Under the pieces are notes generated by a model. That model did no database searches, had not been told where the DNA came from, and saw nothing but the letters and a program-made list of their open reading frames with translations. From positions 261,702,001 through 261,766,000 of the forward strand of contig NC_091282.1 in NCBI RefSeq assembly GCF_032444005.1: 64,000 nucleotides of DNA. The letters are read 5' to 3'. The position numbers and the translations under genes are program-made. Below, piece after piece: positions 53,546 through 64,000 of the stretch; position 1 is the stretch's first letter, and each line of letters starts with the position of its first letter. Source of the DNA: Ranitomeya imitator (taxonomy: Eukaryota).

Positions 53546-53645
53546 AAAAATGTAAGCAGTCCTTCTTTGTTTTGATGGCATATATACTATATATATATAT
53601 ATATATTTTTTTTTTTTTCTGAAGTTTTCAACAACTAGTGAGATA

Positions 53646-55254
53646 CAGTGGGGCAAAAAAGTATTTAGTCAGTCAGCAATAGTGCAAGTTCCACCACTTA
53701 AAAAGATGAGAGGCGTCTGTAATTTACATCATAGGTAGACCTCAACTATGGGAGACAAACTGAGAAAAAAAAATCCAGAAAATCACATTGTCTGTTTTTT
53801 TAACATTTTATTTGCATATTATGGTGGAAAATAAGTATTTGGTCAGAAACAAACAATCAAGATTTCTGGCGCTCACAGACCTGTAACTTCTTCTTTAAGA
53901 GTCTCCTCTTTCCTCCACTCATTACCTGTAGTAATGGCACCTGTTTAAACTTGTTATCAGTATAAAAAGACACCTGTGCACACCCTCAAACAGTCTGACT
54001 CCAATCTCCACTATGGTGAAGACCAAAGAGCTGTCAAAGGACACCAGAAACAAAATTGTAGCCCTGCACCAGGTTGGGAAGACTGAATCTGCAATAGCCA
54101 ACCAGCTTGGAGTGAAGAAATCAACAGTGGGAGCAATAATTAGAAAATGGAAGACATACAAGACCACTGATAATCTCCCTCGATCTGGGGCTCCACGCAA
54201 AATCCCACCCCGTGGGGTCAGAATGATCACAAGAACGGTGAGCAAAAATCCCAGAACCACGCGGGGGGACCTAGTGAATGAACTGCAGAGAGCTGGGACC
54301 AATGTAACAAGGCCTACCATAAGTAACACACTACGCCACCATGGGCTCAGATCCTGCAGTGTCAGACGTGTCCCACTACTTAAGCCAGTACATGTCCGGG
54401 CCCGTCTGAAGTTTGCTAGAGAGCATTTGGATGATCCAGAGGAGTTTTGGGAGAATGTCCTATGGTCTGATGAAACCAAACTGGAACTGTTTGGTAGAAA
54501 CACAACTTGTCGTGTTTGGAGGAAAAAGAATACTGAGTTGCATCCATCAAACACCATACCTACTGTAAAGCATGGTGGTGGAAACATCATGCTTTGGGGC
54601 TGTTTCTCTGCAAAGGGGCCAGGACGACTGATCCGGGTACATGAAAGAATGAATGGGGCCATGTATCGTGAGATTTTGAGTGCAAACCTCCTTCCATCAG
54701 CAAGGGCATTGAAGATGAAACGTGGCTGGGTCTTTCAACATTGATAATGATCCAAAGCACACCGCCAGGGCAATGAAGGAGTGGCTTCGTAAGAAGCATT
54801 TCAAGGTCCTGGAGTGGCCTAGCCAGTCTCCAGATCTCAACCCTATAGAAAACCTTTGGAGGGAGTTGAAAGTCCGTGTTGCCAAGCCAAAAGCCAAAAA
54901 CATCACTGCTCTAGAGGAGATCTGCATGGAGGAATGGGCCAACATACCAACAACAGTGTGTGGCAACCTTGTGAAGACTTACAGAAAACGTTTGACCTCT
55001 GTCATTGCCAACAAAGGATATATTACAAAGTATTGAGATGAAATTTTGTTTCTGACCAAATACTTATTTTCCACCATAATATGCAAATAAAATGTTAAAA
55101 AAAACAGACAATGTGATTTTCTGGATTTTTTTTTTCTCAGTTTGTCTCCCATAGTTGAGGTCTACCTATGATGTAAATTACAGATGCCTCTCATCTTTTT
55201 AAATGGTGGAACTTGCACTATTGCTGACTGACTAAATACTTTTTTGCCCCACTG
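53646..55254 (+). mobile_element. Full-length Tc1/mariner transposon (IR/DR type), second family
   Basis: TA TSD at 53644-53645 and 55255-55256; about 210-bp TIRs starting cagtggggcaaaaaagtatttagtcag. Confidence 0.97.
54013..55036 (+). pseudogene. Tc1 transposase with a single +1 frameshift
   Basis: [10 protein letters not shown]...WSDETK...MLWGCF...FQH, then DNDPKHT...[15 protein letters not shown] in the next frame. An extra T at 54741/54742 (caacaTtgataat) breaks the codon before the second catalytic Asp. Confidence 0.95.
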
Positions 55255-55523
55255 TAAATGTAGGCACACATGGATCACATATGACTGGTATATGTATATG
55301 TATACACATGTAGTATATTATCAGTCCCAGTAGTAAACATAGGACCTTACAAAGTTCTATTCTGCAAAAATAGCGTAGTTACAATTGTCACTGTGGAGGC
55401 TAACCTTCAGTTGGAATTTGACTGGAAAGTTGTACCATTGTAACAAAGGGTGTTTACAAAAGTTGTCAGATGAGATGGACAAGAATATAAGGTACAGAAA
55501 AGAAATAAGGGGAAAAGGTCAAT

Positions 55524-57937: not shown

Positions 57938-58890
57938 TTTTGTAGCTCCACATGAATGTAATATTTGTGTGTATATTAGGTGAGATTCTTAAATTGGAGA
58001 GTAGACACGGAACAGAACCCATGATGGTAAATTATCTTTTGACAACTTCACAGAAAAAATCCCCAGTGTAAACTAGATAAAAAATACCTTTATTAATTAA
58101 TTAAAACTTATAATAATAAGTGCACTTCACATAAACCATCACCATGACAACAACATAAAATAGAAAAGACCAGGGTGATGCCTAGCCCTGTACTGCACTA
58201 CCTGCACCCTACCTACCAGCGGAGGTTGGCACCCTAAAGACCTGCGCAATTGGCGCCCCCGCTCACCGTCGACTATCCCTTCTACCCCTATTGGGCCCTA
58301 ATAGGACGGGATGAAAATACATACACAGTCATACAAAAGTGCTATAATATGATGGAGAAACAGGGGGAGTCTATATTGCTACCTGCTCTTCCCCTACCTC
58401 TCAGCGGAGGTTGGCACCCTATGATAGTACGTGGCGCCCCCGCTCAACGACGACTGTACACTAAACTGTCCCTTTTTTAGATGTTTCGGGAGATAAACTA
58501 CTGTATGTATAGTAAAGTGCTGTAGTGCTTGTAAACCATGTCTAAACACACTCCACAGGTTTAAATATACTTGTATGGATTCTCTTTATATATATATATA
58601 GCGCTCATTCATAAACCAGGTACTCCAGACAAAGTGAAGTTTGATATACACAAGATGTAAATAATCAGTGTTCATCAAGATAAACCTGATGCACCGATTG
58701 AACACCCAAATACCTAGTCCAAACCCACTAGGCAGAATCCCCAGTCAGGCCACAAACAAAAAAACACAGTCAGTCGGTACCTTTGTTATAGAGAATCCCT
58801 ACATAACAACCATTTGGGTCACCCCAATACCCTACTAATGTATATATATAAACACCATTAGTATATTCTCAAACAAAGCCTCCCTTGTAG

Positions 58891-58935
58891 ACTCGACGCG
58901 TTTCCCCTCACTGTTACATGAGGTTCATCAGGAGT
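58891..58935 (-). ncRNA. Minimal type I hammerhead ribozyme motif of the PLE
   Basis: Minus strand reads ACUC-CUGAUGA-A-CCUCA(UGUAACAG)UGAGG-G-GAAA-CGCG-UC-GAGU: complete core, 4-bp stem I, 5-bp stem II, palindromic ACGCGU stem III, GUC cleavage triplet. Confidence 0.85.
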
Positions 58936-59071
58936 AAAACACGATAATAAGGGGTTACTTAGCTTGTATTAGATGTCAAAACCGAAACCGATACATGGTA
59001 TAGCATCCCAGGGCTCCAGGGCAGATCCCCTCTTGATATGGCGCCTCGAAAGAAGTGCTAAAGTGTATGCG

Positions 59072-59340
59072 CTTTATACCTTGCTTTTAGATTGTGCCAC
59101 CCACCTTGTAGCTCTGCGTACATGCCGGTATAGACTTCCGGTAAACTCTCGGCGTTCCGGATGTGATCACATCACACAAGGGACTCCAGTGTGATGTGCG
59201 CATGCGCAGAAATCTCGCGCACGCGCTGACGCTCAAGCGTTCCACAGATGCGTTCCAGTTGCTGCGCTTGCGTGGTAAAACGTCCCCACAACTGTACCAG
59301 CGTTATACAAAGGCACTATGGAGACTACGCATGCGTCCCC
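59072..59340 (-). promoter_or_regulatory. Candidate internal (pseudo-LTR) Pol II promoter of the PLE
   Basis: CpG-rich patch; perfect NRF1 palindrome TGCGCATGCGCA (59197-59208); second CGCATGCG near 59328-59335; two TTCCGG ETS-like cores at about 59135-59160; TATAAAG on the minus strand at 59072-59078, about 140 nt upstream of the hammerhead. Motif-level evidence only. Confidence 0.45.
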
Positions 59341-59805
59341 CTCAATATGGATCCAGCGATCTGTAGACATATCGAAAGCACTGTGCCGGCGCAACCCACA
59401 TATGTATGGGAAGCGCTAGCACCGCACTACAAACCAAGAGCTGAGGTACCACAACTGACACAGATGTAGAAGGTACCGTGTTACCAATGCTGCAGACATA
59501 GATAATGATAAAAATATGATTAAACCATAACCCATAGAAATAGCCGATAGACTTATTGCAACCATACCTTAATATCACAATTTAGGCTTTTACTACCCAT
59601 ATTTACACTATACATCTCTAAGCGCATATCACTACTAAATCTCATTATAATTCATGTGTCCGGGAATATATTTCCACAACACACAGTTAGATGCAGTATC
59701 TCAAAATTGAGATCAGTGAATATATATTTATACAGGTTTGTCCCATTAGGAACAATACTGCAGGAGAAAAATCAGGTGACCAATATTTTATCAACAGGGA
59801 ATAAT

Positions 59806-62340
59806 TTACAGATAACACCCAAAGTTCATCTGTTCATTGAGTCCCCTAGGGAAAACCGTGTCCAACCTATGGATCCATTTCAACTCCTTCTGTAGAATGG
59901 TCCTATCCCAATTTCCACCCCGAACTGATGGGGCCACAACCTCCACTGCACAGAAAGAAAAGGAACTGAGGTCACCCTGGTGAACATCACGAATATGTCT
60001 AGATACGGGAGTGTCCCTAGCATGCCTGATGTCACCCAGGTGTTCACCTATCCTTCTTCTCAGTTCTCTTTTAGTTTTTCCCACATAGTTCTTTGGGCAG
60101 GCACACTTAAAAAGATATATCAAACCACTCGTTTTGCAATTAGCAAAATGTCTGGTCTCAAAAACTCGACCTGTACTAGCACTGGAGAAATGTTTACCCG
60201 TAGAAATATACCCACAGAAGGAACATCCACCACATCTAAAAGTACCCATCTGTCTTTTGTCAAGCCAAGTACCACTCTTTCTTGGGGGGGTAAAAGTGCT
60301 GTGCACCAATTGATCCCTCAATGACCTCCCCCTTTTATAGGTAATGGTCGGTGTTCCTGGTAAAAATTCATGAATGTCAGTGTCTGCCAACAAGATATCC
60401 CAGTGCCTGCCGATAATATCTCTCACCTCCCGGGAACAGTCATCAAAGTTACCTATGAGTCTTACAATGGAGTCAGATTCTACCTTGCTCTTAGATTGTA
60501 ACAGGCTGCTTCTTGGGATTTTTTCTACATACTTAAATGTATCCCGAAGGATATTATTGGGGTAACCCCTTTCACGGAATCTATTTCTCAGGTTTCTCGT
60601 TTCAACGTAAAAGGATGAGTCCGTGGAGCAATTTCTCCTTGCCCTCATATATTGACCTTTGGGTATTCCCCTTCTGAGCCCATAGGGATGATGACTGCTC
60701 CATCTGAGCAGATTGTTAGTAGAGGTCGGCTTCCTGTATATTGCGGTTTCCAGGCGACCTTCCTTATCCTTACTGATAGTAACATCCAGGAAGTTAATTT
60801 TTTCTTTATCAATCTCAGCTGTAAACCTTAGGCCAATGTCATTCTTATTCAAACCCTCTATGAAGGTGTTGAAAGAAATAGTGTCGCCTGTCCACAAAAT
60901 CAGAACATCATCTATATATCGCCCCCAGAATAGTATCTGGGGGCACCACCAAGATGACCTCCCTTCATCAAAAACCACGGTATCCTCCCACCAGCCCAGG
61001 AGCAAATTGGCATAGGTAGGAGCACATGAGCTACCCATAGCCGTGCCCCTGAGCTGGTGGTAAAATTTGCCGTCAAAAAGAAAATAATTGTGGGTCAACA
61101 TAAAATTTAATAGGCGACCTATGAACCGGTTATGCTCCACAAACTGAATCCCCTTAGTTTTTAGAAAATAATCAACAGCTTGCAAGCCTGCATCATGAGG
61201 GATACTGCTGTATAAGGCTTCCACATCAATAGATGCTAGCCATGTATCCTCCCCAACTGTGATATCCTCTATTTTTAATAAGAGATCAGCAGTGTCTCGT
61301 ATATATGAAGGCAGAGCAATAACAAATTCACGTAAGACTTTATCAATGTAGATGCCACAATTCTGTGAGATTGAGTCATTACCCGAAACTATCGGTCGTC
61401 CCCTCAAAGGTACCAGCCCCTTATGTACCTTTGGCAAGGCATAGAATACAGGTATTGTTGGTGTTTTTTGTACCATAAAGTCCCTTTCGTTCTTTGATAT
61501 TAGCCCCTGTGTCAGAGCCTCATCTAATAAATAGACAAGTTCAGAGTTAAACCTATCAGTAGGATCCTTCCTCAAGAGTCCATATGTTGACTCGTCCTTT
61601 AATATTTTAAGACACATATCTCTATAATTGTCACAGTCCAGGATCACGAGGTTACCCCCCTTATCCGAAGGTTTAAACACCAGCTCCTTCTTTTTTGATA
61701 GAGCATCAAGGGCCCTCCTTTCACATGATGTTAAATTTGACATATTGCTCTTCTTTTTGGCACCTAGTCTCTTGAAATCAGTCAATACCAACTGTGTAAA
61801 TATATCTATACTGGTGTTTATAGACAAGGGGGGCATCCTCGTGCTTCCAGGTTTGAGTTTAGTAAAAGGACCCATGCCCATTGGTCTCATACCTTCCTCC
61901 AACATATCTGTCAGAATTCTTACATCAGATAGTTCAGTTATGTCAATACCCAAACTTAGGCACTCAGCTTGATCATGACTCTTGAAGAATTTTTTCCACT
62001 TTAGTTTGCGAGCAAACAGATTAATATCCTTCACCCACTCAAACTCATCGAACCTATTAGTCGGGACAAAACCTAAACCTTTATCAAGGACTCTCTTTTC
62101 TACATCCGACAAGGTATAAGATGATAAATTAATAATGCTGTTATCATTATTTCCTTTTCTTAGTACCGGGGAGTTCCCAGTCGCTCCCTTAATTGGTAGG
62201 GGAGCCCTCGTCTCTCTAAAAAAGTGGAAGCAGAGGGCACAGTTGAGGACCCAGATGTACCAGAATGACCCGGATAAGGTGGTTGATAGCCCATTCCACC
62301 TCTTGGTGCACCATATCTCTTTTTTGTATTCCTTCCCCAT
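59806..62340 (-). CDS. Penelope-like RT/GIY-YIG endonuclease ORF, uninterrupted (844 aa)
   Basis: IINLSSYTLSDVEKRVLDKGLGFVP, FKPSDKGG, FYALPKVHK, RPIVS, SIDVEALY, GTAMGS, RYIDD, FLDV, IYRKPT, CGGCSFC, GLIY...YVGKT, R..EH, E..WI..L. The true N-terminus may derive from the upstream frame. Confidence 0.96.
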   Translation of the reverse strand: MGKEYKKEIWCTKRWNGLSTTLSGSFWYIWVLNCALCFHFFRETRAPLPIKGATGNSPVLRKGNNDNSIINLSSYTLSDVEKRVLDKGLGFVPTNRFDEFEWVKDINLFARKLKWKKFFKSHDQAECLSLGIDITELSDVRILTDMLEEGMRPMGMGPFTKLKPGSTRMPPLSINTSIDIFTQLVLTDFKRLGAKKKSNMSNLTSCERRALDALSKKKELVFKPSDKGGNLVILDCDNYRDMCLKILKDESTYGLLRKDPTDRFNSELVYLLDEALTQGLISKNERDFMVQKTPTIPVFYALPKVHKGLVPLRGRPIVSGNDSISQNCGIYIDKVLREFVIALPSYIRDTADLLLKIEDITVGEDTWLASIDVEALYSSIPHDAGLQAVDYFLKTKGIQFVEHNRFIGRLLNFMLTHNYFLFDGKFYHQLRGTAMGSSCAPTYANLLLGWWEDTVVFDEGRSSWWCPQILFWGRYIDDVLILWTGDTISFNTFIEGLNKNDIGLRFTAEIDKEKINFLDVTISKDKEGRLETAIYRKPTSTNNLLRWSSHHPYGLRRGIPKGQYMRARRNCSTDSSFYVETRNLRNRFRERGYPNNILRDTFKYVEKIPRSSLLQSKSKVESDSIVRLIGNFDDCSREVRDIIGRHWDILLADTDIHEFLPGTPTITYKRGRSLRDQLVHSTFTPPRKSGTWLDKRQMGTFRCGGCSFCGYISTGKHFSSASTGRVFETRHFANCKTSGLIYLFKCACPKNYVGKTKRELRRRIGEHLGDIRHARDTPVSRHIRDVHQGDLSSFSFCAVEVVAPSVRGGNWDRTILQKELKWIHRLDTVFPRGLNEQMNFGCYL

Positions 62341-62446
62341 CTCTCTCTACGGGGTCTGAAAACTGGACTGGTATTATTACTTCCCAGATACCTAGAGGAC
62401 CCACTTTTTTCACTATCTGATGTCTCAATGTCTGATGATGATACAC
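62160..62446 (-). CDS. C-terminal remnant of an upstream basic, Ser/Arg/Gly-rich ORF of the PLE, overlapping the RT ORF
   Basis: VSSSDIETSDSEKSGSSRYLGSNNTSPVFRPRRERWGRNTKKRYGAPRGGMGYQPPYPG...ASTFLERRGLPYQLRERLGTPRY*; open to the 5' truncation point. The RT ORF is in the -1 frame relative to it. Confidence 0.6.
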
Positions 62447-62886
62447 TCATCTCTCTCTACGGGGTCTGAAAACTGGACTGGTATTATTACTTCCCAGATA
62501 CCTAGAGGACCCACTTTTTTCACTATCTGATGTCTCAATGTCTGATGATGATACACCCATCTCTCTCTACGGGGTCTGAAAACTGGACTGGTATTATTAC
62601 TTCCCAGATACCTAGAGGACCCACTTTTTTCACTATCTGATGTCTCAATGTCTGATGATGATACACGCATCTCTCTCTACGGGGTCTGAAAACTGGACTG
62701 GTATTATTACTTCCCAGATACCTAGAGGACCCACTTTTTTCACTATCTGATGTCTCAATGTCTGATGATGATACACCCATCTCTCTCTACGGGGTCTGAA
62801 AACTGGACTGGTATTATTACTTCCCAGATACCTAGAGGACCCACTTTTTTCACTATCTGATGTCTCAATGTCTGATGATGATACAC
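62338..62886. repeat. Five identical 109-nt units (110-nt period) at the PLE 5' truncation point
   Basis: Units start at 62338, 62448, 62558, 62668 and 62778; joining bases are T (62447), C (62557), G (62667) and C (62777). Confidence 0.98.
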
Positions 62887-62889
62887 ACA

Positions 62890-64000
62890 CTGGGGGCGAT
62901 ATATAGATGATGTTCTGATTTTGTGGACAGGCGACACTATTTCTTTCAACACCTTCATAGAGGGTTTGAATAAGAATGACATTGGCCTAAGGTTTACAGC
63001 TGAGATTGATAAAGAAAAAATTAACTTCCTGGATGTTACTATCAGTAAGGATAAGGAAGGTCGCCTGGAAACCGCAATATACAGGGAGCCGACCTCTACT
63101 AACAATCTGCTCAGATGGAGCAGTCATCATCCCTATGGGCTCAGAAGGGGAATACCCAAAGGTCAATATATGAGGGCAAGGAGAAATTGCTCCACGGACT
63201 CATCCTTTTACGTTGAAACGAGAAACCTGAGAAATAGATTCCGTGAAAGGGGTTACCCCAATAATATCCTTCGGGATACATTTAAGTATGTAGAAAAAAT
63301 CCCAAGAAGCAGCCTGTTACAATCTAAGAGCAAGGTAGAATCTGACTCCATTGTAAGACTCATAGGTAACTTTGATGACTGTTCCCGGGAGGTGAGAGAT
63401 ATTATCGGCAGGCACTGGGATATCTTGTTGGCAGACACTGACATTCATGAATTTTTACCAGGAACACCGACCATTACCTATAAAAGGGGGAGGTCATTGA
63501 GGGATCAATTGGTGCACAGCACTTTTACCCCCCCAAGAAAGAGTGGTACTTGGCTTGACAAAAGACAGATGGGTACTTTTAGATGTGGTGGATGTTCCTT
63601 CTGTGGGTATATTTCTACGGGTAAACATTTCTCCAGTGCTAGTACAGGTCGAGTTTTTGAGACCAGACATTTTGCTAATTGCAAAACGAGTGGTTTGATA
63701 TATCTTTTTAAGTGTGCCTGCCCAAAGAACTATGTGGGAAAAACTAAAAGAGAACTGAGAAGAAGGATAGGTGAACACCTGGGTGACATCAGGCATGCTA
63801 GGGACACTCCCGTATCTAGACATATTCGTGATGTTCACCAGGGTGACCTCAGTTCCTTTTCTTTCTGTGCAGTGGAGGTTGTGGCCCCATCAGTTCGGGG
63901 TGGAAATTGGGATAGGACCATTCTACAGAAGGAGTTGAAATGGATCCATAGGTTGGACACGGTTTTCCCTAGGGGACTCAATGAACAGATGAACTTTGGG
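62890..64000 (+). mobile_element. Inverted copy of the PLE 3' portion (RT motif C to GIY-YIG), running off the window
   Basis: Reverse complement of 59818-60928 (1111 bp); only one substitution noticed (AAG to GAG near 63086). Confidence 0.97.

Follow-up and report, generated by a model that had tools for sequence, protein, structure and literature searches.

We found that a very young Penelope-like (PLE) insertion on the minus strand of a 64,000-nt stretch of the Ranitomeya imitator genome (the window) holds a candidate slip site at which two reading frames overlap. In most of the related families sampled from this genome, a first open reading frame, ORF1, overlaps the RT/GIY-YIG frame in -1 phase at a slippery heptamer; the heptamer is conserved within clades and replaced by another between them, and one clade carries ORF1 and RT in a single frame. 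The best explanation, with a probability of about 0.82 as judged from sequence comparison, is a -1 programmed frameshift in a two-ORF element of the Neptune type. A helical ORF1 would overlap the RT/GIY-YIG frame at the conserved heptamer, where ribosomes would slip by -1 to give a predicted ORF1-RT-endonuclease fusion of ~1070 aa; unshifted ribosomes would yield free ORF1 beside the fusion. The slippage itself, and its rate, are inferred. Because the ORF1 start has been lost from the window copy, this copy could not make the fusion itself.

Structure and class of the element

The insertion and its surroundings comprise the following features:

59806-62346, minus strand: RT/GIY-YIG frame, stop to stop, intact and stop-free, 846 aa
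59806-62223, minus strand: RT, CxxCxxC linker and GIY-YIG frame counted from the slip site, intact, 805 aa
62160-62447, minus strand: 3′ remnant of ORF1, which has 287 aa in full-length copies
58036-58563, minus strand: 3′ pseudo-LTR, duplicating the 5′ sequence upstream of ORF1 in full-length elements
58901-58931, minus strand: minimal-hammerhead-like motif in the 3′ UTR, from a motif scan (CUGAUGA, CCUCA/UGAGG stem, GAAA)
62338-62889, no strand assigned: five 110-bp copies of part of ORF1, arranged head to tail (four of them extra), at the truncation/inversion junction
62890-64000, plus strand: inverted copy of the 3′ part of the element, extending 1780 bases beyond the window end

Counted from the AUG at 62340, the RT/GIY-YIG frame has 844 aa (59809-62340, minus strand). 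A domain search of the frame returned GIY-YIG at E 1e-4 and RVT_1 at E 6e-5, the latter scoring under the curated cut-off. A CX2-5CxxC Zn-finger-like linker (CGGCSFC) precedes the endonuclease (EN), and two cysteines lie between the GIY- and YIG-like motifs, by eye like the Neptune-1_Ac row (the CCHH motif of the Neptune EN). The CxxCxxC linker and a GIY-YIG with two inner cysteines agree with the Neptune type, a placement by domain and structure features; the RT tree covered this genome's families only. The element also has the pseudo-LTR and the tandem/inverted insertion structure of Neptune. Pfam family PF28514 was found on 8/8 RT homologs and went unreported for the window frame by the Pfam search used here.

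The 5′ end of the element is cut at 62447, with the 110-bp repeats and the inverted copy beyond. The inverted copy is 99.86% identical to 58036-60928 over 2893 bases. Every 110-bp repeat terminates precisely at the conserved leader AUG. The joints differ in a single base (GG, CG, GG, AG), as expected for repeated template jumps with an untemplated base. Among the query-selected loci L001-L030, we saw no shared 5′-truncation point that would mark a subgenomic start. The motif scan that located the hammerhead-like motif at 58931-58901 recovered its core with stem II only, and an Rfam search matched nothing; a hammerhead-like string on the plus strand of the 110-bp repeats was dismissed for want of an evident stem II. 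Copies of the element are spread over many contigs at internal positions, and its named protein relatives are from frogs. The 5′/pseudo-LTR region (L031:2585-2836) had matches on numerous contigs of four runs; their flanks are unrelated, and ACCCTAA-like repeats occur in some. This repeat is widespread and possibly non-autonomous.

A slippery heptamer at the ORF1/RT junction

The preliminary description had placed a slippery heptamer, followed by a hairpin, between an upstream basic ORF and the RT frame, and the window sequence shows these features. On the minus strand, the upstream frame reads ACU UUU UUA GAG (T-F-L-E), which places TTTTTTA at 62223-62217 in phase, and the -1 reading, F-F-R-E-T, is that of the stop-free RT/GIY-YIG frame (59806-62346). 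An 11-nt spacer leads to a stem of GCUCCC (62205-62200) and GGGAGC (62188-62183), GGUA lies at 62167-62164, and ORF1 stops at 62162-62160. The upstream ORF is also real, but its 98 aa are merely the 3′ third of the 287-aa ORF1, cut at 62447. In full-length copies, the ORF1 stop sits 20 codons past the heptamer's first F. The junction thus contains two candidate elements:

62217-62223, minus strand: U_UUU_UUA slippery heptamer (TTTTTTA), read as F-L in ORF1 and as F-F-R in the -1 frame
62183-62205, minus strand: GCUCCC/GGGAGC hairpin, 11 nt past the heptamer, kept in some close families only

The check that had been proposed for the heptamer and its phase was run on relatives in the same genome. 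We fetched 90 near-family loci, 89 of which had a downstream RT; these represent 15 families, down to 43% ORF1 identity. T6[A/G]G was present in both phases at 82/89 loci, and the remaining 7 had indels yet retained T6A. The background is 5 in-phase T6R per 3337 ORF1 codons. In every case F is encoded by TTT and follows a codon with T in third place, an outcome whose probability under synonymous choice is 0.03-0.20 per family; the families are related and come from one genome, so p-values overstate their independence. On this comparative evidence, the heptamer is more than a chance occurrence. One lineage of 10 loci has T6G-G in its place and has lost the AG, and its RT is open for at least 767 aa in 6/10.

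Distant ORF1 proteins end in K-N-G, not F-L-E, so such families were fetched for a junction check (90 loci, 88 with RT and 78 with a clean -1 overlap; some places were fetched twice). A_AAA_AAC/U occupied the same phase at 77/78 clean-overlap loci, in 22/23 families, where ~1.0 is expected by chance. This A6C clade is distant, with RT about 30% identical. After deduplication, all 57 of its 57 junctions lacked an upstream Met in the RT frame, and 52/57 lacked any Met before the first RT motif. The -1 peptide right past the site, KKRKRRGGRKH, is better conserved than the 0-frame peptide. A third clade, with 13 junctions, has U_UUU_UUA followed by U and no AG; its RT frame opens at the heptamer (median of 0 open codons upstream), and 9/13 have a Met downstream of the heptamer but ahead of the first RT motif. 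A long-branch family represented by a single locus, L210, has C_CCU_UUA in -1 phase at its ORF1/RT overlap.

One supported clade (L217, L220, L226, L235, L239) carries ORF1 and RT in a single frame of 1026-1050 aa with no heptamer, in a quick RT tree with long branches and this genome's families only; frames of at least 1000 aa occurred in 27/146 matches. The length of the fused frame matches the ~1070-aa predicted slip product, which supports a -1 frameshift in the split families. The canonical single ORF is found in the fused clade only and not in the window family. In total, a conserved X_XXY_YYZ heptamer lay in phase inside the overlap, as -1 programmed frameshifting calls for, at 165/193 distinct junctions (the 193 leave out 5 loci without a downstream RT). 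Of the others, 17 had a heptamer with a nearby indel, 6 had no heptamer and 5 belonged to the fused clade.

The window hairpin has a z of -1.44, and 15/200 shuffles fold equally well, so it is no more than chance would give; across 22 representatives the mean z was -0.63, with strong folding in a few families (z to -3.7). The six core stem pairs are intact in 8/17 close relatives, with two compensatory changes. A pseudoknot had been suggested in which the hairpin loop pairs with GGUA, but this partner is kept in only 4/17 close relatives. Seventeen A6C-clade sequences gave no consensus fold. No conserved stimulatory structure emerged from these comparisons.

Other possible routes to the RT

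A first alternative starts from the AUG at 62340, which opens the following feature:

62224-62340, minus strand: leader of 39 codons in the RT frame, beginning with the AUG, basic at first and hydrophobic further on; its frame stays open in the window's subclade only

The preliminary description took the first ~40 aa of the RT ORF for a shadow translation. We found instead that the AUG and an open -1 frame are present at 80/82 loci of the subclade. Stop-forming T is scarce in the leader, at 2/70 sites vs 59/118 matched control sites (the families being non-independent) and at 0/28 vs 26/53 when seven deep lineages are compared. The AUG overlaps the conserved last Trp codon of ORF1, and the codon before this Trp ends in A in 15/15 representatives, vs 18/65 for other Trp codons. 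From the AUG to the heptamer, the -1 frame is stop-free in 14/15 representatives (30-50 codons), and it closes 1-16 codons upstream of the AUG. The base at -3 is a purine in 13/14, and the leaders contain a hydrophobic segment.

These data would also fit if the window's subclade made its RT solely from this AUG, by an internal start, a shorter transcript or reinitiation, the heptamer being dual-coding or vestigial. We consider this improbable. The AUG trait is confined to a single subclade (support 87 in the quick RT tree), and its sister U6A-G families, which have no AUG, retain the same heptamer. The six U never change, whereas nearby residues of the leader alternate among L, F, I and V. The full-length element has 15 AUG triplets upstream of the leader AUG, so plain scanning cannot reach it, and the hydrophobic segment follows automatically from the poly-Ser TCN codons. 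Nevertheless, the AUG and its stop-free leader weigh against -1 frameshifting as a route needing no frameshift, and some heptamer bases could be fixed by dual coding (FLE over FFR). At about even odds, in our judgement, the derived AUG would provide a second, ORF1-free route to RT with a hydrophobic N terminus in the window's subclade, beside the frameshift.

A second alternative is that UUUUUUAG is a 3′ splice site and that splicing joins RT to ORF1 or to a 5′ exon. An AG does follow the heptamer in most loci of the near clade, after a pyrimidine-rich tract (Ser codons there are 126 TCN vs 4 AGY), which also counts against -1 frameshifting; PLEs carry introns, according to the available part of PMC8557442; and automated models in other frogs (P0010, P0013, P0016) join ORF1 to RT, although these are predictions, not evidence. 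However, the AG is missing from the T6G-G lineage with its intact RTs, from the U6A-U clade and from the A6C clade, and the next AG falls at no shared position (GAG vs GAA families). C never occurs within the six U, although acceptors allow C, and an intron would need no open -1 frame. By eye, and near the AUG only, there was no shared GT donor. Splicing into this AG is thus very unlikely. Contigs of four RNA runs did not span the junction in either of the two families checked.

At the ORF1 stop, three of 15 families (L073, L075 and L101, including the T6G lineage) have a UAAUG or AUGA stop-start overlap that puts a Met five codons ahead of the first RT motif. Termination-reinitiation at such an overlap, or polymerase slippage on the homopolymer, is the least likely source of RT: the overlap is missing in 12/15 families and in the window copy, and although transcription could slip on six consecutive U or A, such slippage does not require the X_XXY_YYZ phase rule seen across heptamer types, including C_CCU_UUA.

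The lack of a conserved stimulator, the downstream Met in 9/13 U6A-U junctions and the stop-start overlap in three families of the window's subclade all count against -1 frameshifting as well. On the other side stands the junction set as a whole: with its heptamer swaps, its clades without AG or Met and its fused clade, it cannot be explained by splicing at an AG or by a start codon, and it can be by -1 frameshifting. Of the gag-pol-like two-ORF strategy first envisaged, the -1 shift joining ORF1 to RT is therefore strongly favoured by the comparison, whereas the pseudoknot and the shadow leader have fallen away. A broader proposal, which we advance tentatively as somewhat less probable than not, is that most frog Neptune elements are two-ORF and gag-pol-like, with the annotated "single ORF" being the pol half only. 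They would rely on a -1 shift in which one heptamer can stand in for another and no stimulator is fixed, and would have moved between the frameshifted and the fused state. In the window's subclade a third product would be made as well, an RT-endonuclease started at the AUG whose leader, basic and hydrophobic (membrane-anchor-like), is encoded beneath the Ser-rich tail of ORF1.

ORF1 and known two-ORF systems

ORF1 is widespread. A genome search gave 134 scored matches, of which almost all lie in open frames of ~280-300 codons, and a profile search of public data gave 1139 clusters at E ≤ 0.001. Pfam had no match to the ORF1 remnant. The structure model (pLDDT 65, pTM 0.49) shows three long helices followed by a disordered, S/R-rich tail with PYxLR at its end; compared with the PDB, it had no match at E ≤ 0.001 and no Gag fold, and an Atlas search also had no match. 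We infer that ORF1 may have a Gag-like role in RNA packaging. In many families and in other species, a PYxLR or YxLR motif ends ORF1 after the slip site (window 62163-62205, minus strand), and since it is located past this site, only unshifted ORF1 carries it. The motif may resemble chromatin-tethering motifs of foamy-virus Gag.

Other species are represented here by proteins only, and all junction DNA is from one genome. Longer, fused ORF1 proteins were absent from 2547 candidates, which is weak evidence and is contradicted by P0013 and the fused loci. A metagenome scan for ORF1 loci yielded 346 pattern matches, with 0 confirmed. The three automated frog gene models P0010, P0013 and P0016 combine parts of ORF1 and RT with each other and with host genes (cytochrome P450, DPY19L4); such models are likely annotation artefacts.

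We compared this layout with published accounts of PLEs. Canonical EN+ PLEs are called single-ORF in the available part of Craig et al. 2021 (PMC8557442), and the available part of Arkhipova and Yushenova 2019 (PMC6431247) describes PLEs as having either a single ORF with an EN or two ORFs without one. The preliminary description, which gave GIY-YIG PLEs as usually described as single-ORF elements, agrees with this account of canonical EN+ forms, but an ORF1 frameshift is not wholly unknown in PLEs: the Fig. 1 legend of PMC8557442 states that a frameshift with a pseudoknot may set ORF1 apart. Because two ORFs are assigned to EN-lacking elements in the part of PMC6431247 at hand, this mark probably refers to the endonuclease-less Athena. 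For a killifish Neptune, the accessible text of PMC12602865 has a 419-nt upstream ORF without similarity, and the term "frameshift" is absent from it. The accessible portions of PMC3846280, PMC5408684, PMC4209133 and bioRxiv 10.64898/2026.07.22.740005 contain no programmed frameshift in PLEs. In our literature search, no report of a frameshift in Neptune or EN+ PLEs came up, and an earlier description may exist.

The window element resembles Neptune, as far as the available part of PMC8557442 describes it, in its RT with C-terminal GIY-YIG, CX2-5CxxC linker, pseudo-LTR and inverted 5′-truncated insertion, and possibly in its hammerhead-like motif. Unlike Neptune as described there, most families sampled here have ORF1 and RT split by a putative -1 shift, and one clade has them fused. 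Athena/Terminon and Coprina are EN-minus PLEs with a coiled-coil ORF1, Athena and Coprina being telomere-associated. In contrast to Athena and Coprina, the window element has an endonuclease, lies at internal positions of many contigs and lacks a conserved pseudoknot.

The heptamers themselves are known viral slip sites, U_UUU_UUA being that of HIV-1 and A_AAA_AAC that of MMTV and HTLV. The junctions share with retroviral gag-pol and gag-pro -1 frameshifts the same heptamers, the phase and the order of a structural ORF followed by an enzyme ORF. Unlike retroviruses, this element has no Gag fold, protease, integrase, LTRs or conserved stimulator, and several heptamers are found in one family group.

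The RTs of PLEs form the sister group of telomerase RT; their expression and packaging are poorly known. If the -1 reading is correct, a conserved ORF1 and a frameshift in endonuclease-bearing vertebrate elements would revise the textbook single-ORF model and would explain RT frames without a start codon, and biochemistry on the RT ORF alone would miss about 270 N-terminal residues. ORF1 constitutes a large unannotated protein family that automated annotation joins to host genes. Together, the naturally occurring U6A, U6G, A6C, CCCUUUA and fused junctions offer ready material for studying frameshifting without a fixed stimulator.

Elsewhere in the window, long inverted repeats at 53644-53853 and 55045-55256, about 1.2-1.4 kb apart, probably mark a DNA transposon.
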